Shown: positions 5,750-16,615 of the stretch, in pieces
Numbering within the stretch: position 1 is the stretch's first letter
How the letters are laid out: the number at the start of each line of letters is the position of its first letter
DNA from: an uncultured Kiloniellales bacterium
Lineage (GTDB): Bacteria > Pseudomonadota > Alphaproteobacteria > Kiloniellales > JAKSDN01
Direction of reading: 5' to 3'
Assembly (NCBI GenBank): GCA_947258885.1
Contig: CAMYKD010000018.1
Coordinates: 27,150 to 91,149 of the forward strand
DNA: 64,000 nucleotides
The notes under the pieces: model-generated
Database searches by the model: none
What the model was told of the DNA's origin: nothing
The model's input: the letters and a program-made list of their open reading frames with translations, nothing else
Position numbers and translations under genes: made by a program

Positions 5750-6429
5750 GACGCGGTTCCGAGGTCCTGGTCAACGGCGTGGAGCTGCTGGCCGACGTTT
5801 CAGGAGCGCTCTACTGGCCGGCGCTGCGCACGCTGGTGGTCGCGGATCTGCATCTGGAGAAGGGCTCGGCATTCGCGGCACGAGGACAGCTGCTGCCGCC
5901 CTACGACAGCGCCGCGACGCTGCAGGCCCTGGCCGAGGTTATCGTCCGTCGCGATCCCGAGCGGGTCATCTGCCTGGGCGACAGCTTCCACGACGACGGC
6001 GCGGCCGGGCGCTTGGCGTCCGCCGACGGCGCGGCGTTGCGCCGCCTGACCGCCGCCCACGACTGGATCTGGATCGCGGGCAATCACGACCCTGTCCCCC
6101 CGGTCGCTTGGGGCGGGAAGGTCGAAACCCGGGTCACGCTGGGCGCGCTCGCATTCCGGCATCGGGCCGGCGGCGACCGCGCACCCGGGGAGATTTCGGG
6201 CCACTACCACCCCACGGCCTCGGTGCGCACGCGCGCCAGGCGGATCACTGGGCGCTGTTTCGTGGGCGACGGCAGGCGCCTGATTCTGCCCGCCTTCGGC
6301 GCCTACACCGGCGGCCTCGACGTGCTCGACCCGGCCATCGCCGGGCTTTTTCCGCGCGGCTTTTCGGTCCACCTGCTCGGCCGCGGCGCGGTCCACAGCT
6401 TCTCCGGGACGGCATTGGCGGCCGGATAG
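5746..6429 (+). CDS. pdeM: ligase-associated DNA damage response endonuclease PdeM (metallophosphoesterase)
   Basis: 227 aa. Calcineurin-like phosphoesterase motifs: VVADLHLEKG, CLGDSFHD, GNHDP, GHYHP. Translationally coupled to the upstream Lhr-like helicase. Confidence 0.85.
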   Translation: MRRGSEVLVNGVELLADVSGALYWPALRTLVVADLHLEKGSAFAARGQLLPPYDSAATLQALAEVIVRRDPERVICLGDSFHDDGAAGRLASADGAALRRLTAAHDWIWIAGNHDPVPPVAWGGKVETRVTLGALAFRHRAGGDRAPGEISGHYHPTASVRTRARRITGRCFVGDGRRLILPAFGAYTGGLDVLDPAIAGLFPRGFSVHLLGRGAVHSFSGTALAAG

Positions 6430-6683
6430 GTCCTGCGGGCCGGCGGCGACCCGTGGATCAGGAAGCCGATCGTCGGCGCGGGATTGCGGGTCGGTGCCAC
6501 CCATCACCGCTCATACCGGGGGCTCATGGGAAGTCAACAGATCGACCGGATCTGTGGCTGGGCCTGCGAGCACGCACCCTGAAACGAGATCTTTCGTTAT
6601 AGTTGCTTTCTTTTCAAGGATATTCTCCCTTCTCAACGTTCTGGGCCAGCCCCGTCAGGCAGTGCGGGCAATGATCTTTTTCG

Positions 6684-6708
6684 GGAAGAAATCGCCGGAC
6701 CGGGTGTT
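6684..6708 (+). promoter_or_regulatory. ECF-type promoter candidate upstream of G/S-rich gene 1
   Basis: GGAAG-AAATCGCCGGACCGGG-TGTT (GGAAG, N16, TGTT), ending 43 nt before ATG 6752. The same architecture recurs at 9664-9688(-), 9778-9802(+) and 11392-11416(+). The 16-nt block CGGGAAGAAATCGCCG is identical to the one at 11390-11405. Confidence 0.6.
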
Positions 6709-6751
6709 TTCTGAACAACGGCCATTGCAACTACAGAGTAGGTAAAATCTT

Positions 6752-7048
6752 ATGAAAAACAAAACCATAGCCGATGAAGCCGTCGAGACGAACGTCGACC
6801 TGGACCGGCGGCGAGCCCTTGCCCGTCTCGGGCTCGGTCTTTCGGCCGCCTACGCGGTCCCGGCCCTACTGACCTTGAGCCGCGGCGCCCACGCCTCGAG
6901 CGGCGATGGCGGCTCTGGCGGCTCGGGTGGCTCCGGCGGCGATAGCGGCTCCGGCGGCAGCGCCTCTGGCGCCAGCGTCAGCGGTCCGAGCAGCGACGAT
7001 CCGGCGGTCGTGTCGGACGGTAGCAGCGGCCCGTCCGTCGATCCCTAG
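6752..7048 (+). CDS. small Gly/Ser/Asp-rich protein 1 with conserved twin-Arg leader (candidate secreted protein or modified-peptide precursor)
   Basis: 98 aa: MKNKTIADEAVETNVDLDRRRALARLGLGLSAAYAVPALLTLSRGAHA|SSGDGGSGGSGGSGGDSGSGGSASGASVSGPSSDDPAVVSDGSSGPSVDP. It has a Tat-like RR n-region, an h-region and an AxA site. The core has no Lys, Arg or aromatic residues. Paralogous to the ORFs at 9890 and 11473. Confidence 0.75.
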   Translation: MKNKTIADEAVETNVDLDRRRALARLGLGLSAAYAVPALLTLSRGAHASSGDGGSGGSGGSGGDSGSGGSASGASVSGPSSDDPAVVSDGSSGPSVDP

Positions 7049-7065
7049 CCCTAGACAACTTTCAT

Positions 7066-7092
7066 CCGCCGGGCCCTTTACGGGCCCGGCGG
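7066..7092 (+). terminator. strong GC hairpin between G/S-rich gene 1 and the kinase-RRE gene (terminator/attenuator candidate)
   Basis: CCGCCGGGCCC-TTTAC-GGGCCCGGCGG forms an 11-bp perfect stem 18 nt after stop 7048. It is followed by GCTCTTTGT, which is only a weak U-tract. Confidence 0.5.
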
Positions 7093-7155
7093 GCTCTTTG
7101 TAGGATCCCCGACAGAGCGTGAGTCGAACAACGGCGTCGAGCCGGACGAGGCGCT

Positions 7156-8382
7156 GTGCCTGATAGATTGCTTCTCGAATTCGAAGGTCTGAGCCACCGG
7201 ATCGCCCTGCTGGACTGCCGCGAGGTCTATGCCTGCTTTCCGGGGGTGTTCCGCGGCTGGAAGATCCATGAAGCCGGAACCGCCGACCAACCCCCGATCC
7301 TGACCCTCGCGGGCTCTGGCGAAGGCTATACCCTGGAAACCCCCTGGCTCGACCAGCCGCTGGTGCGCCGCGACAAGATCGACGCGCTCTGCGGCTTCAT
7401 CGCCGAGTTCATCCGGGCCTATGTCAACGACGACCAGCGGCTGCTCTGCCTGCACGGCGCGGCAGCCGAGTTCGCCGGCAAACTCGTGGTCTTTCCGAAC
7501 CGCTACCGGGCCGGCAAGAGCGTGCTCTCCGCCTGCCTGGCGGCGGCCGGGGTGCGCCTCTTCGCCGACGACGTGCTGCCGATCGGCGGGCCGGACGACC
7601 TCGGCATGGCGCCGGGCATCGTGCCGCGTCTGCGGCTGCCGCTGCCGGACAACCTGACTCCGGCAACAAGGGACTTCCTGGAGGCCCGCCGGGGACCGAG
7701 CGGCAAGCGTTATCTCTACCTGGACTTGGCCGCGGCGGAACTCGCCAGCTACGGCACGCTGGCGCCCATCGGCGGTTTCGTGCTGCTCGAGCGGGAAGCG
7801 GGGGCGGATCTCGATCTCGCGCCGGTCGACCCGGGCGAGATGCTGCGCCAAGTGATCTGGCAGAACTTCGCCCGCGAGACCCCGGCGCCCGAGATCCTGC
7901 GGCGCCTGGAGCGCATCGTCGGTCGCGCCCGCTGCCTTCGCCTGCGCTACGACCGGGCGGACGAGGCCGTGGCCCTGCTCAAGGAAACATTCGCGAGCTG
8001 GCCCGCGGCCGCGGAGGATCCCGAAGGAGCGGTTCAGGATGCACATGGCCCGGGGCCGTCCGCGCCGACAGGGAACGTCCCGACCGGTTGCTATCTGCGC
8101 AATCCGGACATTACCGAAACGAAGGTGGGGGTGGAACACTTCCTGGCCGACTCGAAGGGCGCGGCGATCCACAACCTCAACGCCGTCGGCTCTGCGCTCT
8201 GGCAGCTCATGGCCGAGCCCAGGACCATCGATGAGCTGGTCGACCCGCTGCACGCCGCCTTTCCCGAGGTCGCTCGCACGCAGATCGAGCAGGACGTGCG
8301 CGCACTGCTCAAGGGTCTCATCGCCAAGCGGCTCGTGATGGCGGGATCCGAGGACATCCGGGGGCGCCAGAGCGCCTCGTGA
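7156..8382 (+). CDS. HprK-like serine kinase domain fused to C-terminal PqqD-family (RiPP recognition element-like) domain
   Basis: 408 aa, GTG start. The N-terminal ~300 aa carry HPr kinase C-domain-like motifs: LCLHGAAAEFAGKLVVF, the P-loop-like RYRAGKSVLSACL, and VRLFADDVLPI. The C-terminal ~90 aa are PqqD-like: AAIHNLNAVGSALWQLMAEPRTIDELVDPLHAAFPEVARTQIEQDVRALLKGLIAKRLV. Confidence 0.75.
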   Translation: MPDRLLLEFEGLSHRIALLDCREVYACFPGVFRGWKIHEAGTADQPPILTLAGSGEGYTLETPWLDQPLVRRDKIDALCGFIAEFIRAYVNDDQRLLCLHGAAAEFAGKLVVFPNRYRAGKSVLSACLAAAGVRLFADDVLPIGGPDDLGMAPGIVPRLRLPLPDNLTPATRDFLEARRGPSGKRYLYLDLAAAELASYGTLAPIGGFVLLEREAGADLDLAPVDPGEMLRQVIWQNFARETPAPEILRRLERIVGRARCLRLRYDRADEAVALLKETFASWPAAAEDPEGAVQDAHGPGPSAPTGNVPTGCYLRNPDITETKVGVEHFLADSKGAAIHNLNAVGSALWQLMAEPRTIDELVDPLHAAFPEVARTQIEQDVRALLKGLIAKRLVMAGSEDIRGRQSAS

Positions 8383-8403
8383 AAGGTGCCCCTGGAAAGC
8401 CGG

Positions 8404-9048
8404 CTAGCTGTCGCTGATCAGAACCAACCGCGTCTTCCACTGGCCCTCGGGCGCGCGGCAGGCGATGGCGCGGCGAATCTCCGATTTGCCGTCCAGCGCC
8501 TCCAACGCGGTGTATTCCCGGCACCACTGGCCGCCTCTGTTCTTGAAGGTGCGCACCGGCGTAATCTCGCCGGTCTTGCCGCTGTCCGGATTGCGCCAGG
8601 CAGCGGCCTCGCCGCTCACATTTTTCTCCAAGGCCTGGGTTAACGCCGCTTCCCTGACCCGCTGATCCGCCTGCCCGACGGCGTGGAGCCGGGCGATCTC
8701 CTGCTCGACCCGGTAGTCGACCAACAGGAACCCGCCGCCCAGCCCGACGATCAGCATGGCAAGCGACGCGGCAAGCGCAACGGGCCAAGGACTGCGCCAG
8801 GGACCGCTGCGGCTCGCCCGCTCGGCGGACGTTGCCTGGATCGCCTGGAGGACGCGGGCCGGAACCGGCGCGTTCAACGGTTCGTTGAAGGCCGAGCGCA
8901 ACAGCTCGGCGCTCTCGCGCAGCCGGCGGACGGTTTCGCGGGCTTCGGAATCCCCGGCAAGCGCCGCTTCCACGCGCGCAGTCTCGCTCTGGTCGAGTTG
9001 TCCGTCTACGTAGGCGACCAAGAATTCCGGATCGATAAATTGGGTCAT
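8404..9048 (-). CDS. anti-sigma factor, single TM, periplasmic surface-antigen-like Cys-pair domain
   Basis: Start at MTQFIDPEFLVAYVDGQLDQSETARVEAALAGDSEARETV, an anti-sigma N-terminal helix-type sequence. ATG 9048 lies 4 nt after the sigma stop. TM segment: WPVALAASLAMLIVGLGGGFLLV. C-terminal domain: W.NPDSGKTGEITPVRTFKNRGGQWCREY...ACRAPEGQW. Confidence 0.8.
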   Translation of the reverse strand: MTQFIDPEFLVAYVDGQLDQSETARVEAALAGDSEARETVRRLRESAELLRSAFNEPLNAPVPARVLQAIQATSAERASRSGPWRSPWPVALAASLAMLIVGLGGGFLLVDYRVEQEIARLHAVGQADQRVREAALTQALEKNVSGEAAAWRNPDSGKTGEITPVRTFKNRGGQWCREYTALEALDGKSEIRRAIACRAPEGQWKTRLVLISDS

Positions 9049-9052
9049 GACG

Positions 9053-9586
9053 TCACCTCGCCGGTTCCGGGGTCGGGGTCGGCTGTTCGCCGCCAACGAA
9101 GGCTTTCAGGGCCAGCCGCGCCCGGGCGAGGCGGCTGGTCACGGTGCCGATGGGCAGCTCCAGCATTTCCGAGACCTCCCGGTAGGACAGGCCCTCCACG
9201 GTAACAAGCAGCAGGATGGTCTTCTGCTCCTCGGGCAAGCGATCGACGAAACCGCGCACCGCCTCGAAGGTCATCTGCGCCTCGGCGGCCCGCACTCCGT
9301 CCACCGTGCCGTGCTCGACCGGGTCGATGCTGGCCAGGTGCTGGCCGCGCACGCCCTTGGCGCGCAGGTCGTTCAGATGGAGGTTGCGTGCGATGCGATA
9401 CATCCAACTGTCCAGCCGGGTCCCCGGTTGCCATTGATCGATGTGGCGGATCGCCCTTTCGCAGGTCGCCTGCAAAAGGTCGTCGCCGTCGTGCACAGAG
9501 CCGGTCAGGCCGTAGGCGAAGCGGCGCAGTCGGGGCAGAAACGCGAGCATTTCACGGCGAATCGTCTCGTCCAACTCTGATCGCAC
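9053..9586 (-). CDS. ECF (extracytoplasmic function) RNA polymerase sigma-70 family factor
   Basis: 177 aa. Region 2: DLLQATCERAIRHIDQWQPGTRLDSWMYRIARNLHLNDLRA. Region 4: LPEEQKTILLLVTVEGLSYREVSEMLELPIGTVTSRLARARLAL. GTG start at 9586; an alternative ATG lies at 9550. Confidence 0.9.
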   Translation of the reverse strand: MRSELDETIRREMLAFLPRLRRFAYGLTGSVHDGDDLLQATCERAIRHIDQWQPGTRLDSWMYRIARNLHLNDLRAKGVRGQHLASIDPVEHGTVDGVRAAEAQMTFEAVRGFVDRLPEEQKTILLLVTVEGLSYREVSEMLELPIGTVTSRLARARLALKAFVGGEQPTPTPEPAR

Positions 9587-9663
9587 CCTTTGCCTGAGAC
9601 CACCCTGGAGACCCTGGTGGACCTGAAGTGTCCCGGATCCTCGAGGACCGACCTCAATTCAAC

Positions 9664-9688
9664 AACACGCGAAATCGGGGTTTATTCC
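9664..9688 (-). promoter_or_regulatory. ECF-type promoter candidate upstream of the sigma gene (autoregulation)
   Basis: On the minus strand it reads GGAAT-AAACCCCGATTTCGCG-TGTT (N16). It lies 77 nt upstream of the sigma start at 9586. Confidence 0.55.
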
Positions 9689-9777
9689 CCCTGCACGACG
9701 CTATTACACTACTCAGTACCAGAGAAACCGACCTACGTTATGGTTAACGACCGTGTACGAAAAGACCCTTGGTCGGC

Positions 9778-9802
9778 GGAAGATTTCTTGCCCTGAGGTG
9801 TT
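9778..9802 (+). promoter_or_regulatory. ECF-type promoter candidate upstream of G/S-rich gene 2
   Basis: GGAAG-ATTTCTTGCCCTGAGG-TGTT (N16), 87 nt upstream of ATG 9890. It is divergent from the sigma-gene promoter candidate. Confidence 0.55.
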
Positions 9803-9889
9803 ATTTGGGCAAGACAGGTAGAGGTGGCGCTCCCTCGCGCCAGTCGCGGGGATCGCGGCAAAGAGTTACACACGGGCAGGAAGCAGTCG

Positions 9890-10432
9890 ATGTCGATCAA
9901 CCAGTTCCGGCGCAATCTTCGCCTACTCGCCTCGACCAGCGTCTTGGCCTGCGCGATTATTGGGGCGCCGGTCTCCGTACGGGTCCAGCTGGACGGCCCG
10001 GGTTGGCATTTCGAAGCGCCTCTGATCGGTTCCGGAGTTTTTCGTCATACCTCCGGCGAGAGCTTGGAGCCCGGCACCGCGGAGCTCGGTACCGACAGGA
10101 GCGCTGACGAAGCGCGGCGCAAGGCCCTGGCGCGCCTCGGCCTGGGTGAAGGCACACCCTATGAGCCTCCCGTATTGCTCACCCTGAGCCAGGCCCAGGC
10201 AGCGTCCGGCAGTGGCAGCGGTGGTGACAGCGGCGGTGATAGCGGTTCCTCAGGGGGCGACGACTCCGGTGGCAACAGCGGCCCCGGAGGGGCATCCGGC
10301 CCAAGCAGCGGCACATCGGGGACTTCCGGTACGGCCGGCGCGAGTGGCGGCAGCTTTGGCGACGTGGAGCAGGCAGGCCCCAGTCTCAGCCAGGATGAAG
10401 AGGCGACAGCGATCAGCACCGGTTGGCAGTGA
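9890..10432 (+). CDS. Gly/Ser-rich protein 2: own N-terminal signal, an internal copy of the conserved leader module, then a G/S-rich tail
   Basis: Preferred ATG 9890 (AGGAAG upstream). Signal: MSINQFRRNLRLLASTSVLACAIIGAPVS. After ~60 aa comes ...DEARRKALARLGLGEGTPYEPPVLLTLSQAQAASGSGSGGDSGGDSGSSGGDDSGGNSGPGG.... The track ORF starts at GTG 9824. Confidence 0.7.
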   Translation: MSINQFRRNLRLLASTSVLACAIIGAPVSVRVQLDGPGWHFEAPLIGSGVFRHTSGESLEPGTAELGTDRSADEARRKALARLGLGEGTPYEPPVLLTLSQAQAASGSGSGGDSGGDSGSSGGDDSGGNSGPGGASGPSSGTSGTSGTAGASGGSFGDVEQAGPSLSQDEEATAISTGWQ

Positions 10433-10812
10433 GTAGCCGCGTCCCGAATCCTTACTATGGACTGCCGTGGCTGGCAGCTTTCATGCTCGCGTCATGCACG
10501 GCGCAGGGTCCGGGATCATCCCAGGAGGCGGCGCGGGACACGTTCTACGATGGCTTGAGCACCGAGGAAATCGCGGTCGCGCAGCAGGCCGTCCAAGAGG
10601 CGCTCGAAAGCCGGCTGAGCAACGAGACGTCCCAGTGGACGTACCCAAACGGCAGCTCAGGCTCGGTCACGCCGCTCCGCACCTTCCGCACCAAGACGGG
10701 TCACTATTGCCGGGACTATGCCGAATCCCTCGCCAAGGGGTCTCAGCCGGGCTCCACCGTCAGGACGGCATGCCGCGGCAGCCAGGGTATATGGCGGGTG
10801 GTCAAGCGCTAA
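10423..10812 (+). CDS. lipoprotein with surface-antigen-like Cys-pair domain (paralog of the anti-sigma periplasmic domain)
   Basis: TTG 10423 (or GTG 10429) overlaps the end of the upstream gene. Lipobox: AAFMLASC. Domain: SQWTYPNGSSGSVTPLRTFRTKTGHYCRDY...ACRGSQGIW. It aligns position for position with the anti-sigma C-terminus. Confidence 0.7.
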   Translation: MAVSSRVPNPYYGLPWLAAFMLASCTAQGPGSSQEAARDTFYDGLSTEEIAVAQQAVQEALESRLSNETSQWTYPNGSSGSVTPLRTFRTKTGHYCRDYAESLAKGSQPGSTVRTACRGSQGIWRVVKR

Positions 10813-11080
10813 CGTCGGCCCCAGAGCGCTGGACCGCGCTCGACTTCGCGGTGCTCGCACGCATCGACAGCGTCAGCAACGCCGGAGGACAGCAAAACCA
10901 GCACGCCCGGCGAGCCGGCTAAGTCCGCCGGCGGTTTCGGCTGTCTCGAACAGATGGGCCCCGACCTGAGCACCGGCGACGAGGCCGAGGCCATCCAGCG
11001 TGGAGGGCAATAACAGCCACGCCTCGGATCGCCCTGCAGGGCCTGATCGGCAACCAAACCCCGCACTCGACAGACCGCGC

Positions 11081-11319
11081 CTAGCCCGCATTTCTCACAC
11101 TGTCCACGGTCTGCGTCGCGTTCAGGCGGTGCGCTCGGCTAGGAGAAGGGCGAAAAGCGCAGCCGTAGCTACGGTTGAGGCTTTCGACGCGGCCGACACC
11201 CGGCTGGGCGCGACCCAGCCGTGCGGCGCGATGCTGAAGCATCGGGCAAGCGGCTTGACGCACCCTGTTGGCGGGACAGCGTCGCGCAGACCATGGACAG
11301 TGTGAGAAATGCGGGCTAG
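11081..11319. repeat. ~239-bp element bounded by 35-bp inverted repeats (MITE-like element or long-stem structured RNA)
   Basis: The left arm at 11081-11115 is CTAGCCCGCATTTCTCACACTGTCCACGGTCTGCG. The right arm at 11285-11319 is its reverse complement with one mismatch. The interior holds several short palindromes (CCGTAGCTACGG, GGCTGGG..CCCAGCC, GATGCT..AGCATC). No credible ORF. Confidence 0.7.
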
Positions 11320-11391
11320 CGGCGGACTTACGGGTCTCGTCTACCGGTGGCCTTCCCGATCTCCCCGCACGAACTTTTCTTTCGCCGCGCG

Positions 11392-11416
11392 GGAAGAAAT
11401 CGCCGTTCGGCGTGTT
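11392..11416 (+). promoter_or_regulatory. ECF-type promoter candidate upstream of G/S-rich gene 3
   Basis: GGAAG-AAATCGCCGTTCGGCG-TGTT (N16), 56 nt upstream of ATG 11473. Confidence 0.6.
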
Positions 11417-11472
11417 TGGTTAATGGAAGGTTAACGCACTCCCTTTGTCCTACGCTCGAGAGGAGTTATGTC

Positions 11473-11877
11473 ATGAGCAACAAAACCGAAGAGAAAGCGA
11501 CCGACGGGCTCACGGCCGAAATGAATCGCCGCAGGGCACTTGCCCGCATTGGCTTGGGCGTTTCCGTTGCCTATGCAGCACCGGTCCTGATGAACCTAAG
11601 CCAAGCGGCGGCGTCGTCCGGCAGCGGTTCGAGCGGACCGAGCGGCCACGGCGGGCCGGACGGCGACGAAGGGTCGAGCGGCCACAGCGGGCCGAGCGGC
11701 CACGGCGAGTCGAGCGGCGACGAAGGGTCGAGCGGCGACGAAGGGTCGAGCGGCCACAGCGGGCCGAGCGACTATAGCGAAGGGCCCAGCTCTCCCTCGG
11801 GACCGAGCGACTATAGCGAAGGGCCCACCTCTCCCTCGGGACCGAGCGACTATAGCGAAGGGCCCACCTATCGCTAA
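11473..11877 (+). CDS. small Gly/Ser/His/Asp-rich protein 3 with conserved twin-Arg leader and tandem SDYSEGP repeats
   Basis: 134 aa from ATG 11473 (GAGGAG upstream). Sequence: MSNKTEEKATDGLTAEMNRRRALARIGLGVSVAYAAPVLMNLSQAAA|SSGSGSSGPSGHGG...(SGPSDYSEGPxSP)x3...TYR. The N-terminus and leader are collinear with gene 1. Confidence 0.75.
   Translation: MSNKTEEKATDGLTAEMNRRRALARIGLGVSVAYAAPVLMNLSQAAASSGSGSSGPSGHGGPDGDEGSSGHSGPSGHGESSGDEGSSGDEGSSGHSGPSDYSEGPSSPSGPSDYSEGPTSPSGPSDYSEGPTYR
11761..11870 (+). repeat. 39-bp in-frame tandem repeat (~2.8 copies) inside G/S-rich gene 3
   Basis: GG(G/A)CCGAGCGACTATAGCGAAGGGCCCA(G/C)CTCTCCCTCG occurs at 11761, 11800 and, truncated, at 11839. GGCGACGAAGGGTCGAGC is also repeated three times between ~11663 and 11751. 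Confidence 0.9.
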
Positions 11878-11991
11878 GAATCGAGGGGTCCTTCGGGCTC
11901 GATCGGTCTCACGCCGACCTAATCTCGGGGATCCTCGAGAACGCGGCAGAGAAAGCAGCGTTCGGAATGTGATGCGCGGCGAGGCCGGCCC

Positions 11992-13392
11992 CTACCCGGC
12001 CTCGCCGAGGCATTCGTCGAGGATGCCGAGCGCCCGGTCCATTTCGTCTTCGGTGACGACGAGCGGCGGGCTCAGGGTCAGCACGCTGCCCATGGTGGTT
12101 TTGAAGCTGAGCCCGCGGTCGAGCGCCCGATACAGGACCTCCTCGGTGGCCTCCGTCGCGGGCTCCTTGCTCTCCCTGTCGGCCACCAGCTCCAGTCCGA
12201 GCAGCAGCCCGCGCCCGCGCACGTCGCCGACCAAGCGATGCCGGTCCTTCAGGTCGTGCAACCGTTCGAGCGCGCGGGCCCCGACCTCGGCGGCATGCTC
12301 GACCAGCCCCTCCTGCTCGATGATCTCGATCGTGGTGAGCGCCGCCCGGGCGGTCACCGGGTTCTTTTCGTGGGTGTAGTGGCCGACCGCCCAGGCACCG
12401 GCCGCGTCCAGCCCGGGCTGGCAAAGCACGGCCGCAATGGGCAGCATGCCGCCGCCCAGCGCCTTGCCGAGAACCAGGATGTCCGGCACCACCGCCTCGT
12501 GCTCGCAGGCGAACATGCGCCCGGTCCGGCCCAGCCCGGTCGGGATCTCGTCGAAGATCAAGAGCGCCCCATGGTCGTCGCAGGCCTGGCGCACCGCCTG
12601 CCAGAAGCCCGGCGGCGGCAGGTAAGGCACGGCACGGGCCGGCTCGGCGACCACCGCCGCCACGTCGCCCTCCTTCTCCAGCACGTAGCGTACGAAATTG
12701 GCGCAGGTCATGTGGCAGAGATCGAGCTGTGGCCGACCGTCGCGATCCGGATAGCCATAGGGGCAGCGGTAGCAGGTGAAGGGGGCGACATGCTCGCCGC
12801 CCGGCAGCAGCGGCCCGACCGGCCCGGAGCGGAATAGCTGCTCGCCGCCAACGCTGGCGCCGCCGAAGCCCGCGCCGTGGAAAGAATCCCAGAACGACAC
12901 GGTCTTGTGCCGGCCCGTGGCCGCGCGGGCGACCTTGAGCGCCACGTCGATCGCGTCGGATCCGCCGGTCGTGAACAGCGCCTTGGAGAGCGCGCCCGGC
13001 GAGATCCCGGCCAGCTTGCGCGCCAGCGCCACGGCCGGCTCGCAGGTAAAGCGCCGCGGCGCGAAGGGCAACTCGTCGAGCTGCGCCTTGATCGCCGCCT
13101 TGAGCCGCGGATGGCCGTAGCCGATGTGATGGACGTTGTTGCCGTGGAAGTCCATGTAGCGCCGGCCGGCCAGGTCCTCGATCCAAATGCCCTCGGCGCG
13201 GCGCACGACCGAAAGGCAGGGCGTCGAGATCGACTGGTGCAGAAAGTAGCGGGCGTCCTGCTCGACCAGCGCCCGGGTCGCCGCATCGTGGGTCGCCGCC
13301 GTCCAGCGCCGCCGGCGTTCGGAGGTGTTGCTCTCGCCTTCCGAGAGATGCGGCACGGCTCCCGGCTTGACCTTGCCCTCATTTGTGCTCAT
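11992..13392 (-). CDS. class-III (fold-type I) PLP aminotransferase-family enzyme; candidate PbfA-type (R)-1-hydroxy-2-aminoethylphosphonate ammonia-lyase
   Basis: Start at MSTNEGKV (ATG 13392). Motifs: FTTGGSDAIDVALKVAR, LLIFDEIPTGLGRTG, VLGKALGGG (PLP Lys). Located directly downstream of phnW and phnX on the same strand. The PbfA assignment comes from context only. Confidence 0.8.
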   Translation of the reverse strand: MSTNEGKVKPGAVPHLSEGESNTSERRRRWTAATHDAATRALVEQDARYFLHQSISTPCLSVVRRAEGIWIEDLAGRRYMDFHGNNVHHIGYGHPRLKAAIKAQLDELPFAPRRFTCEPAVALARKLAGISPGALSKALFTTGGSDAIDVALKVARAATGRHKTVSFWDSFHGAGFGGASVGGEQLFRSGPVGPLLPGGEHVAPFTCYRCPYGYPDRDGRPQLDLCHMTCANFVRYVLEKEGDVAAVVAEPARAVPYLPPPGFWQAVRQACDDHGALLIFDEIPTGLGRTGRMFACEHEAVVPDILVLGKALGGGMLPIAAVLCQPGLDAAGAWAVGHYTHEKNPVTARAALTTIEIIEQEGLVEHAAEVGARALERLHDLKDRHRLVGDVRGRGLLLGLELVADRESKEPATEATEEVLYRALDRGLSFKTTMGSVLTLSPPLVVTEDEMDRALGILDECLGEAG

Positions 13393-14491: not shown

Positions 14492-15637
14492 TCAGGCGGC
14501 CGCCGGCATACAGTTGGCCACGCCCATTTCGCCGAGCGTCTCGCGGATGGCGGCGAGCGCGCCTTCCATCTGTTCGGGTCCCAGGCGGCCGATGCAGCCG
14601 ATGCGAAAGCTGTCGGCAACGGTCAGCTTGCCCGGATAAATGACATAGCCGCTCCGGCGCAGCCGGTCGTAGAAGGCCTCGAAGTCGAACTTCGGATCGA
14701 CCGGCTTGTGAAATGTCACGATGACCGGCGCCTGCAGCGCGTCGGGCAGCAGCGTGCGAAAGCCGAGCGCGCGCATGCCCTCGATCAGGATCCGGCAGTT
14801 CCGGGCGTATCGCGCGCCGCGTCCCGCGACACCGCCCTCGGCCTCGAACTCCTCGAGTGCCCGGTCGAAGGCGAGGATGCAGTGGGTCGGCGGCGTGAAG
14901 CGCCACTGGCCGTTCTGTTCCATCGAAACCCATTGGTCGTAGAGATCGAGGCTGAGCGAAGGGCTGTTGCCCTTGGTCCGCTCCAGCGCCTCCTTGCGTG
15001 CGATGCAGAAACCCATGCCGGGCACGCCTTCCAGGCATTTGTTGGACGAGGCCACCACGGCATCGAAGGGTATCGCGCGCGCGTCCAGCGGGATCGCCCC
15101 GAAGGCGCTCATCGCGTCGATCAGGAGGCCTCGGCCGTGCCTGGCCGTCACTTCGGCCACGGCCTGGAGCGGGTTGAGGATGCCCGAGGTCGTCTCGCAG
15201 TGGACCACGGCGACATGGCTTACTTCGCGGTCGGCAGCCAGTGCGGCGTCGAGCGCTTGGGGATCGACCGGCGTGTCCTCGGGCGTTTCCTGGATCACCG
15301 TGGCGCGGTCGTAGTACTCGCAGATCCGGGCGATCCGCTTGCCGTAGGCGCCGTTCACCAGGACCAGGACCTTGCCGTCGGGCGGCACGAAGTTGCCCAT
15401 CATGGCCTCGACCACGAAGGTGCCGCTGCCTTGGAGCGGCACGCAGACGTGGCCGTCATCGCCGTTCACGATCTCGACCAGCCGCTCGCGGACCCGCCGG
15501 TTGACCGCGATGAAACGCGTATCGCGCGAGCCGTAGTCGTGCAGCATGGCCTCTTTGATACCTGGCGAGGTGGTCAGCGGGCCGGGTGTGAGCAGCCAGG
15601 GGTCGCCGGTCGGCGAAGCGGAAGGTGCGGTGGTCAT
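14492..15637 (-). CDS. phnW: 2-aminoethylphosphonate--pyruvate transaminase
   Basis: Start at MTTAPSASPTGDPWLLTPGPLTTS (ATG 15637, GAGGGGA RBS). Class-V aminotransferase fold with SSNKCLEG (PLP Lys). The track ORF extends to 15694. Confidence 0.9.
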   Translation of the reverse strand: MTTAPSASPTGDPWLLTPGPLTTSPGIKEAMLHDYGSRDTRFIAVNRRVRERLVEIVNGDDGHVCVPLQGSGTFVVEAMMGNFVPPDGKVLVLVNGAYGKRIARICEYYDRATVIQETPEDTPVDPQALDAALAADREVSHVAVVHCETTSGILNPLQAVAEVTARHGRGLLIDAMSAFGAIPLDARAIPFDAVVASSNKCLEGVPGMGFCIARKEALERTKGNSPSLSLDLYDQWVSMEQNGQWRFTPPTHCILAFDRALEEFEAEGGVAGRGARYARNCRILIEGMRALGFRTLLPDALQAPVIVTFHKPVDPKFDFEAFYDRLRRSGYVIYPGKLTVADSFRIGCIGRLGPEQMEGALAAIRETLGEMGVANCMPAAA

Positions 15638-15707
15638 GGCGGGTGTCCCCTCGTTGTCATGCGGTGGACGGTTGCGCACTATGGGAACGATCATTAATAT
15701 AAATCAA

Positions 15708-15744
15708 ATCGATATTTTTTATATCTATCATAGGTTATATCGAT
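15708..15744. promoter_or_regulatory. AT-rich divergent phnW/lysR control region with inverted repeat ATCGATAT-N21-ATATCGAT
   Basis: The 8-bp arms lie at 15708-15715 and 15737-15744, in the only AT-rich stretch between the divergent genes. Plausible LysR-type operator; not proven. Confidence 0.3.
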
Positions 15745-16615
15745 GAATTTTGCTCAGCTTCGGGCCTTCCATGCGGTCGCGACCGCGGGCAGCTATACCC
15801 GGGCCTCCGAGACCCTCCACGTCACCCAGCCGACCCTCTCGGGCCAAGTCAAGGCGCTGGAGGAAAGTTACGGCGTGCGGCTGTTCGAGCGACGGGGGCG
15901 GGGCGTCGAACTGACCGGGCTGGGCCGCGGGCTGCTCGACATCACCCGCCGACTCTACGCGATCGAGGCCGAAGCGGAGCAGCTGCTCTCGGCGGCCCGC
16001 AGTCTGACCGGCGGCCAGCTACGGGTCGGGGCCGACGCGCCCTACCACGTGATCCCCCTGCTCGCCGCCTTCAACCGGCGCCATCCGGGCATCCAGCTCT
16101 CGCTGAGCTTCGGCAACTCGGAGAAGGTGCTGCACGACCTCTTCGAACGGCGTAGCGAGGTGGCGGTTCTGGCCGACCTCAAGGCCGACCGGCGGCTCTA
16201 CGCCCTGCCCTTCCGCAGGGACCGCCTGGTGGTCTTCGTCGAGCGGGGCCATCCCTGGGCCCGGCGCCGCAGCATCCGGCTGGCCGAGTTGGCCGACCAG
16301 CGGCTGGTGCTGCGCGAGCCGGGCTCGATCACGCGGGCCATCTTCGAGCGGGCGATTGCGGCGGCCGAAGTGGCGCCGGGCGAGATCCTGGAGATCGGCA
16401 GCCGCGAGGCGGTGCGCGAGGCGGTGGCCGCGGGCCTCGGCATCGGCGCGGTCTTCGAGAGCGAGTTCGGCCGCGACCCGCGCCTGCACGCGCTGGCCGT
16501 GCGCGATGCGGATCTGGAGGCCGTCGAGTCCGCCGCCTGCCTCGAGGACCGCCGGCCGGTGCGCGTCGTGCGCGCCTTCTTCGATCTCATACGGGAAACG
16601 AACCCGGCGATTTGA
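15743..16615 (+). CDS. LysR-family transcriptional regulator (phosphonate cluster)
   Basis: 290 aa. N-terminal wHTH: MNFAQLRAFHAVATAGSYTRASETLHVTQPTLSGQVKALE. Divergent from phnW. Confidence 0.9.
   Translation: MNFAQLRAFHAVATAGSYTRASETLHVTQPTLSGQVKALEESYGVRLFERRGRGVELTGLGRGLLDITRRLYAIEAEAEQLLSAARSLTGGQLRVGADAPYHVIPLLAAFNRRHPGIQLSLSFGNSEKVLHDLFERRSEVAVLADLKADRRLYALPFRRDRLVVFVERGHPWARRRSIRLAELADQRLVLREPGSITRAIFERAIAAAEVAPGEILEIGSREAVREAVAAGLGIGAVFESEFGRDPRLHALAVRDADLEAVESAACLEDRRPVRVVRAFFDLIRETNPAI

Follow-up and report, generated by a model that had tools for sequence, protein, structure and literature searches.

We analyzed a 64,000-nucleotide stretch of DNA from an uncultured Kiloniellales bacterium (contig CAMYKD010000018.1, positions 27,150 to 91,149; the window hereafter), in which four copies of the motif GGAAK-N16-TGTT surround the gene of an extracytoplasmic function (ECF) sigma factor. 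These four motifs are very probably promoters read by RNA polymerase with the adjacent sigma factor, which resembles the ECF26 group. They face the sigma gene itself and the genes of three Gly/Ser-rich (G/S-rich) proteins, named GS1, GS2, and GS3. A first-pass annotation of the DNA had proposed an ECF regulon including the sigma gene and had suggested an exhaustive scan of the window. An exact scan of both strands recovered the four copies where that annotation had placed them and no further copy, and all are intergenic with each facing a gene. The sites are given below together with their ranks by a position weight matrix (PWM), their retention in locus L082 (a fully syntenic metagenome relative with about 89% identity in the kinase), and transcription start sites (TSSs) predicted from Sinorhizobium meliloti ECF26 promoters, whose TSSs are 8-9 nt past the −10 element.

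6684..6708, + strand: P-GS1, predicted ECF26-type promoter GGAAGAAATCGCCGGACCGGGTGTT; exact match, PWM rank 2; kept in L082 at 7506; predicted TSS ~6716-6717
9664..9688, − strand: P-sigma, predicted autoregulatory promoter GGAATAAACCCCGATTTCGCGTGTT; exact match, PWM rank 1; identical site in L082; predicted TSS ~9655-9656
9778..9802, + strand: P-GS2, predicted divergent promoter GGAAGATTTCTTGCCCTGAGGTGTT; exact match, PWM rank 3; predicted TSS ~9810-9811
11392..11416, + strand: P-GS3, predicted promoter GGAAGAAATCGCCGTTCGGCGTGTT; exact match, PWM rank 4; predicted TSS ~11424-11425

The distance from the motif end to the start codon is 43 nt for GS1 (ATG 6752), 77 nt for the sigma gene (GTG 9586), 87 nt for GS2 (ATG 9890), and 56 nt for GS3 (ATG 11473), which agrees with the orientation and the 43-87 nt range noted earlier. 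The sigma and GS2 sites form a back-to-back, divergent promoter pair with 89 nt between them. In 100 dinucleotide-preserving shuffles of the window the motif occurred 0.30 times on average and twice at most, and no shuffle contained four or more copies. The first-pass estimate of about one chance match in 2 × 64 kb was thus conservative. A stricter search of the window with GGAAKAWWYC...GT returned the same four sites only. The PWM was trained on 46 orthologous sigma promoters, with the window and loci L082-L085 left out, and it ranked the window sites 1-4 of 127,940 positions, with scores of 25.2 (P-sigma), 24.0 (P-GS1), 20.4 (P-GS2), and 18.0 (P-GS3). The fifth-best position scored 10.5, leaving a gap of at least 7.5 bits, against a background mean of −34.7 (sd 9.9). 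No additional regulon member is therefore visible in the window. A sigma-70 promoter scan of positions 6300-12100 found no housekeeping-type promoter, and thus no competing promoter model emerged for this region. An Rfam scan of the same region (E≤1) gave two chance-level matches, none of which fell at the motifs or at an inverted repeat described below.

The motif is conserved among orthologues of the sigma factor. The orthologue set, with one genome per species, was obtained by a sigma-family alignment scan that yielded 80 alphaproteobacterial loci (L001-L080) from Rhodospirillales metagenome-assembled genomes, Stella, Tagaea, and others, and closer relatives were added from metagenome look-ups. 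Footprinting with the pattern GGAA[GTC][AT]-N14-16-[CT]GTT within 200 nt upstream of the sigma genes found the motif for 60 of the 83 orthologues. This corresponds to 3.4 per kb versus 0.08 per kb-strand over all loci, a more than 40-fold enrichment. The spacer was N16 in 49 orthologues and N17 in 11. Positions left unconstrained by the pattern were conserved as well, position 7 being A in 35/49 and the second base past GTT being T in 34/49, giving the orthologue consensus GGAATAA-N14-CGTTnT. In the window, the spacers of all four sites start with A(A/T)(A/T)(T/C)C after GGAAK and carry a G before TGTT, as noted in the first-pass annotation. The A-rich start recurs in the orthologues, where it is part of an extended −35 element GGAATAA, but the G before the −10 element is not conserved. 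The generic ECF architecture assigned earlier can now be refined to an ECF26-type promoter, GGAATAA-N14-(C/T)GTTnT.

In the syntenic relative L082, all four sites are retained. The P-GS3 counterpart there, GGAAGAATCCGCGCGCCCGCGTGTT, has unchanged −35 and −10 elements and a spacer altered at several positions. The sigma and GS2 sites are also present in L084 and L085, and L084 has the GS3 site as well; both contigs stop short of the GS1 promoter region. A divergent motif opposite the sigma gene is found in many orthologous loci and also in L082, L084, and L085. The motif lies ahead of homologous targets in three further lineages, represented by L003, a Shinella plasmid (L092), and L094. Each of these carries motifs before the sigma gene, before the divergent target, and before an operon of a leader peptide and a kinase-PqqD protein.

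The sigma gene is followed by the gene of an anti-sigma factor, placed 4 nt downstream of the sigma stop.

9053..9586, − strand: ECF sigma factor, ECF26-like, with Sigma70_r2 and r4_2 domains and Asn72 at the position equivalent to Asn84 of RpoE
8404..9048, − strand: anti-sigma factor with a putative anti-sigma domain at its N-terminus, one transmembrane segment, and a periplasmic 17kDa_Anti_2 domain

The sigma factor of 177 amino acids matches PF04542 (7e-15) and PF08281 (3.4e-15), with no further domain, and TIGR02937 above its cutoff. It shares 43% identity (E 1e-39) with S. meliloti RpoE6, an experimentally studied member that was classed as ECF26 (Lang et al., 2018). The similarity supports the description ECF26-like, a wording that stays short of formal membership of a group or subgroup. 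The anti-sigma factor matches PF16998 (1.1e-9) and NF052375 (1.5e-16, but under its cutoff). Its sub-cutoff matches to zf-HC2 (21.0 bits, cutoff 22.2) and RseA_N (18.9, cutoff 24) concern the anti-sigma domain models, and it aligns over its full length with S. meliloti EcfR6 (28% identity over 223 amino acids).

This organization resembles the ECF26 systems (S. meliloti RpoE1/E3/E4/E6 with EcfR partners; Staron 2009; Casas-Pastor 2021), in which a two-domain sigma factor is co-transcribed with a single-pass anti-sigma factor, the promoter has a −35 GGAATA and a −10 (C)GT, and the regulon is small and local. Across species, ECF26 promoters share the consensus −35 GGAATA and −10 GT; those mapped in S. 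meliloti have the form GGAATAA...CGT(T/C), for example GGAATAACACAGGCGACCGGACGTT (Lang et al., 2018). All four window sites read GGAA(T/G)A...GTT in agreement with the ECF26 promoter consensus. An S8 serine protease or a lipoprotein is a frequent product of the target gene divergent from an ECF26 sigma gene, as for rpoE6/SMa0142 and rpoE1/SMc01418. There are also differences from these systems. The −10 elements in the window have T as their first base (TGTT), which goes with Asn at the RpoE-N84 position, in place of the pairing of CGTT with Asp. The periplasmic part of the anti-sigma factor is a 17kDa_Anti_2 domain, and a paralogous lipoprotein is encoded within the regulon. In place of the sulfite-oxidation genes of RpoE1/E4 or the catalase and cytochrome b561 of ECF26s1, the window regulon has G/S-rich leader proteins and a kinase/PqqD protein as its targets. 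No kinase/PqqD module is present in the S. meliloti pSymA rpoE6 region, which was checked for it. ECF26 is a large and poorly characterized group, with a known function only for S. meliloti RpoE1/E4 in the sulfite response.

The link between the motif and this particular sigma factor comes from covariation. Residue 72 of the sigma factor (...RIARNLHL-N-DLR...; window codon 9373-9375) was the sole alignment column to split the sigma factors according to TGTT or CGTT in their own promoters. With relaxed −35 matching, 63 of 80 pairs were D72/CGTT and 17 were N72/TGT(T/A), with no N/C or D/T pair; three more N72 loci show TGTT by eye. On a rough neighbor-joining tree built with that column masked, the state of residue 72 changes about three times, and therefore the correlation does not go back to one inherited event. 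A manual alignment anchored on the conserved W-x-Y-R-I-A-x-N helix places residue 72 at Asn84 of Escherichia coli RpoE, a position that sets the −12/−13 base preference according to saturation mutagenesis (Todor et al., 2020). Here, the same domain-2 position covaries with the upstream-edge base of the −10 element. Unlike the E. coli RpoE case, a natural Asp/Asn to C/T switch within one ECF group is seen here, from comparative analysis. On this comparative evidence, residue 72 and the first −10 base form a natural specificity switch of one residue and one base, which exemplifies a known ECF code; the covariation across the loci ties the motif to the adjacent sigma factor.

Several points weigh against assigning the four sites to the adjacent sigma factor. 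The strict pattern was unmatched in 23 of the 83 orthologous upstream regions; on inspection these are mostly degenerate −35 variants, with nothing convincing in three to four of them. S. meliloti rpoE6 itself was reported under an RpoD-type promoter (Lang et al., 2018), and therefore not every member of the group is autoregulated. The GS1 and GS3 sites have a 28-nt block in common at 86% identity, because of which the two may be non-independent, paralogous copies of one duplicated promoter. Duplication of a gene along with its upstream region would leave such a block, and the motif could be a relic of duplication with paralogous G/S genes, or else a conventional transcription-factor site, and in either case no sigma-recognition element. 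We consider both of these readings of the motif extremely unlikely. The motif is also present before the non-paralogous sigma gene, S8 peptidases, and Hint-domain proteins; it has two blocks at a fixed spacing of 16-17 nt without dyad symmetry; its spacers diverge whereas the blocks stay constant; and it covaries with a residue in sigma domain 2.

A further point concerns the identity of the sigma factor. S. meliloti RpoE1, E4, and E6 cross-activate one another's targets and have similar motifs (Lang et al., 2018). Because ECF26 paralogues cross-recognize promoters in that organism, a further paralogue elsewhere in this genome, of which 64 kb were visible, could contribute to expression from the four sites. 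The sites might even be genuine ECF-type promoters read mainly by such a paralogue, with the adjacent sigma factor one input among others or not the main one, although this is very improbable. Asn72 of the adjacent sigma factor fits the unusual TGTT of all four sites, the pairing is exceptionless in 80 pairs, and the motif and its targets are physically linked to this sigma factor in at least five lineages. Recognition by the adjacent ECF26-like sigma factor remains our preferred reading.

All computational tests that might have gone against the proposed regulon support it, but the member list of the first-pass annotation lacked the kinase/PqqD gene and the lipoprotein gene. The candidate targets and the element between the first two of them are as follows.

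6752..7048, + strand: GS1, 98-amino-acid protein with a twin-arginine/YxxPxL/AHA leader and a G/S-rich tail (33% Ser); open reading frame with an L082 orthologue
7065..7093, + strand: strong hairpin of 12 bp (11 G-C) with a T-rich tail between GS1 and the kinase/PqqD gene, from a terminator scan
7156..8382, + strand: 408-amino-acid fusion of an HprK/PEPCK-fold P-loop kinase-like domain, a disordered linker, and a C-terminal PqqD-type RiPP recognition element (RRE; RiPP, a peptide synthesized ribosomally and modified post-translationally)
9890..10432, + strand: GS2, 180 amino acids, with an N-terminal signal anchor, an internal leader-like module, a G/S-rich region, and the C-terminus ...EQAGPSLSQDEEATAISTGWQ; open reading frame
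10423..10812, + strand: lipoprotein (lipobox LASC) with a 17kDa_Anti_2 domain (PF16998 6.1e-7), paralogous to the periplasmic domain of the anti-sigma factor
11473..11877, + strand: GS3, 134 amino acids, with the same leader as GS1 and a G/S/H/D/E-rich tandem-repeat tail; open reading frame, leader alignment

The fusion protein matches PF05402 at residues 327-394 and TIGR04352 in part, at residues 93-140. Its AlphaFold (AF2) model (pLDDT 87.5, pTM 0.83) consists of two domains and a disordered linker. In the predicted structure, the N-terminal domain is similar by Foldseek to PEPCK (E 1.6e-6) and HprK/P (~1e-4), and the C-terminal domain superposes on leader-bound TbiB1 (TM-score 0.85, rmsd 2.1). 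A profile search against the PDB matched the C-terminal domain to TbiB1 (4.8e-9) and also to TfuB1. Residues H100, G120-K121-S122, and D138-D139 are invariant in 36 diverse members. No residue-by-residue equivalence of these to the catalytic His/Lys/Asp-Asp of HprK/P is claimed here. The family comprises at least 526 clusters at 50% identity (E≤1e-30), labelled in the sources only as 'PqqD family protein' or 'hypothetical'. A literature search returned lasso-peptide papers only and no description of a kinase/PqqD fusion family, a result that does not prove that none exists. Longer family members (P0201, P0403, P0438, and P0449) were inspected as candidate natural precursor-enzyme fusions and are not such fusions.

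GS1 matched no Pfam or NCBIfam family. The leader alignment of the G/S-rich proteins and their relatives has a D/E-rich N-terminus, invariant RR, A, R, GL, Y..P, and L within RR-x-A-L-x-R-L-G-L and the following segment, and an AxA-like end. YxxPxL is present in GS1, GS2, and GS3, and Y..P is invariant across the alignment. The best score of the twin-arginine translocation (Tat) model TIGR01409 on the leader was 13.3 bits, versus a cutoff of 16.7. In GS2, the leader-like module is internal, after a separate signal anchor, and has acidic residues in the would-be hydrophobic region. The C-termini of the G/S proteins (...SVDP, ...TGWQ, ...PTYR) and of homologues (...IQED, ...NGQT, ...RSFT) have no C-terminal Ser. 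The enzyme-linked cores contain 16-33% Ser versus 4-10% in two unlinked leader peptides, a small sample. The S8 peptidases of L092 (4512-5849, − strand) and L094 (4607-5902, + strand) begin with this RR/YxxPxL leader, after which comes a short linker rich in Ser/Gly or Ser/Arg; a single targeting or recognition signal is therefore common to the protease and the small peptides. We also considered that the leader is exclusive to partners of kinase/PqqD proteins. This was rejected, since in L093 (6001-7621) two tandem RR/Y..P leader peptides with Cys-containing cores (...PTPC...GKGKGG..CPPD) are encoded beside a tetratricopeptide-repeat (TPR) methyltransferase and a PqqD gene is absent, which makes the leader family wider than the kinase/PqqD partnership.

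A leader-bearing, Ser-rich small gene lies directly upstream of the fusion gene in every context examined. A strong hairpin usually separates the two genes. The one between GS1 and the fusion gene is a probable partial terminator or attenuator, and a hairpin of different sequence is found at the same position in L082, L003, L085, L086, and L089-L092. In gamma-like contexts (L086, L088-L091), the precursor/fusion pair is alone, with neither the sigma factor nor the ECF motif. AT-rich DNA with GGGAAT(T/A)(T/A)A(T/A)(T/A)CCC palindromes lies ahead of the precursor gene in L086 (7440-7500) and L089 (~7390-7440), which looks like a different control of the module, probably of repressor or activator type. 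An ECF26-type motif precedes the precursor gene in the clade of the window, in L003, on the plasmid of the cultured Shinella sp. WSC3-e, and in L094. Predicted ECF control of the module is therefore seen in separate lineages whose partner genes and core compositions differ.

The module has features in common with lasso-peptide systems. The C-terminal domain of the fusion is nearest to the B1/PqqD-type RREs TbiB1 and TfuB1 in sequence and fold, and the putative G/S substrates bear YxxPxL, the lasso-leader motif that B1 (RRE) binding requires; binding is predicted for the window proteins. The HPr-kinase homologues of lasso clusters (paeninodin PadeK, BsfK) are a precedent for an HprK-family kinase modifying a linear precursor before further processing. 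Unlike in lasso systems, the kinase and the RRE form one polypeptide, the substrates are 100-180 amino acids with long repetitive G/S cores instead of ~40-residue peptides, and the leader additionally has an invariant twin arginine. The G/S proteins also lack the C-terminal Ser that lasso kinases use as their site. Neither a lasso cyclase (Asn-synthetase-like C) nor a B2 protease (transglutaminase-like) was found in the window cluster or among the Pfam-labelled neighbors in L082-L086, L088-L092, and L094 (about 12 contexts), and therefore the locus is not a lasso system.

We tentatively propose an undescribed modification system, a possibility to which we give less than even weight. The lasso-type RRE of the widespread fusion would dock on a YxxPxL leader that also serves as a twin-arginine export signal, and the HprK-like domain would multiply phosphorylate, or modify in another NTP-dependent way, the long, disordered Ser/Gly-rich polypeptides before export. 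The products would be stress-induced, highly charged envelope polymers, a new RiPP-like class that would be under a sigma factor in some lineages. Fold, conserved residues, and substrate composition are what point to phosphorylation. Other findings weigh against this proposal. The TIGR04352 (HprK-related kinase A) match covers the P-loop core only, at 40.7 bits versus a cutoff of 200, and a single-sequence search of the kinase core against PDB sequences did not reach HprK. By fold and invariant P-loop and Asp-Asp residues the fusion appears to resemble an HprK-type kinase, yet it is not a member of the curated TIGR04352 family. The leader occurs on exported S8 peptidases and beside the methyltransferase of L093, and it may primarily be a Tat-type export signal.

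The latter idea can be extended to a different account of the whole module, in which the leader is just a Tat (or Sec) signal peptide, the G/S proteins are exported without modification, as disordered proteins of the periplasm or envelope, and the PqqD-kinase-like protein is a signal-peptide-binding chaperone or NTPase. This account is also possible without being probable. The invariant RR, the hydrophobic stretch, and the AxA-type end of the leader fit it, as do the weak Tat-model matches and the presence of the leader on exported S8 peptidases and beside other enzymes without a PqqD gene. The scores of the Tat models, all under their cutoffs, count against it and against the modification proposal alike. 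The internal position of the GS2 module behind a signal anchor, with acidic residues in the would-be hydrophobic region, also argues against this account, as do the invariant P-loop Lys-Ser and Asp-Asp pair of the enzyme and the Ser-rich enzyme-linked cores. The two roles of the leader, export signal and RRE docking, would be compatible, and one leader could serve both.

For the circuit as a whole, we suggest the following mechanism. In the resting state, the co-transcribed membrane anti-sigma factor would hold the sigma factor. A periplasmic signal sensed via the 17kDa_Anti_2 domain would release it, after which domain 4 would read the −35 GGAA(T/G)AA and domain 2 the −10 TGTT, with Asn72 matching the T. 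Free sigma factor would transcribe its own sigma/anti-sigma operon, producing positive autoregulation, as well as GS1 with read-through of the hairpin into the kinase/PqqD gene, GS2 with the lipoprotein paralogous to the anti-sigma sensor domain, and GS3. The products would be leader-bearing, Ser/Gly-rich, disordered polypeptides. The PqqD/RRE domain would most likely bind the YxxPxL-containing leader, and the HprK-like domain would modify, probably phosphorylate, the Ser-rich tail ahead of export through the twin-arginine-type leader. If the modification system proposed above exists, the paralogous sensor-domain lipoprotein could act back on the anti-sigma factor, as could the conserved ...GWQ C-terminus.

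The GS2 part of the regulon varies among the relatives. The lipoprotein gene is probably co-transcribed with GS2 because it overlaps the GS2 stop, and lipoprotein homologues are found downstream of the divergent target in L001, L003-L006, and L016. The GS2 family includes divergent sigma targets with a matching anchor and C-terminus in L001, L005, L006, L016, L044, and L058. More generally, the sigma-divergent genes of relatives encode signal-anchored proteins of acidic or G/S low complexity, often with a ...EQ(A/V)GP(D/S)LS..EE..AI..GW(Q/E) C-terminus. S8 peptidases, some with acidic repeats, occupy this position in L021, L037, L053, L057, L092, and L094. In L001 (~6160-7230, − strand), L002, L005, and L016, a Hint module of the intein/hedgehog autoprocessing type (PF05203 3.5e-10, PF14623) lies between the anchor and the acidic repeats, which suggests self-cleaving secreted proteins in this regulon family. 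In the window, the frame at 10813-11013 (+ strand) is open past the lipoprotein stop without a start codon and ends in ...SAGGFGCLEQMGPDLSTGDEAEAIQRGGQ, clearly homologous to the GS2 C-terminus ...SGGSFGDVEQAGPSLSQDEEATAISTGWQ. We take it to be the probable remnant of another GS2-type gene; the syntenic L082 lacks it.

Further observations concern the surroundings of GS3. Its coding repeats (11639-11885) are nested 18-nt and 39-nt tandem units encoding SGHSGP/SGDEGS and GPSDYSEGP(S/T)SPS. The His/Asp/Glu-rich composition is suggestive of metal binding and of variation in repeat number between strains. The start of the 5' untranslated region (11417-11440; TTGGTTAATGGAAGGTTAACGCA, with a GGTTAA direct repeat) is near-identical to L082 ~11968-11990, whereas the adjacent promoter spacer has diverged; this segment may be a conserved leader-RNA element. 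A 51-nt inverted repeat (11065-11115/11285-11335), 86% complementary with 169 nt between the arms, lies 57 nt upstream of the GS3 −35 element. Its two arms are the only copies in the window, it has no Rfam match, and it falls in an insertion/deletion relative to L082; it could be an insertion resembling a miniature inverted-repeat transposable element or a structured RNA. Apart from the regulon, positions 15690-15725 form an island very rich in A+T, TTAATATAAATCAAATCGATATTTTTTATAT, whereas the window is otherwise 67% G+C. The island is flanked by a divergent class-V aminotransferase gene (14492-15694, − strand) and a LysR-type regulator gene (15743-16615, + strand), and is probably the shared regulatory region of these two genes, unrelated to the ECF motif.

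An autoregulated, local ECF26-type regulon is a known kind of circuit and will not surprise a specialist. The less ordinary part is its cargo of undescribed, predicted secreted G/S-rich proteins and a probably leader-binding kinase-like enzyme. The locus and its more than 80 relatives define a coherent ECF26-like subfamily with a compact, computationally well-supported regulon, and the Asp/Asn to C/T switch could serve orthogonal promoter design. The regulon is also the first regulatory handle on the uncharacterized kinase-RRE fusions and their leader-bearing Gly/Ser-rich partners. Overexpression of the sigma factor or deletion of the anti-sigma factor should turn on the whole module, whose chemistry would then be directly testable.

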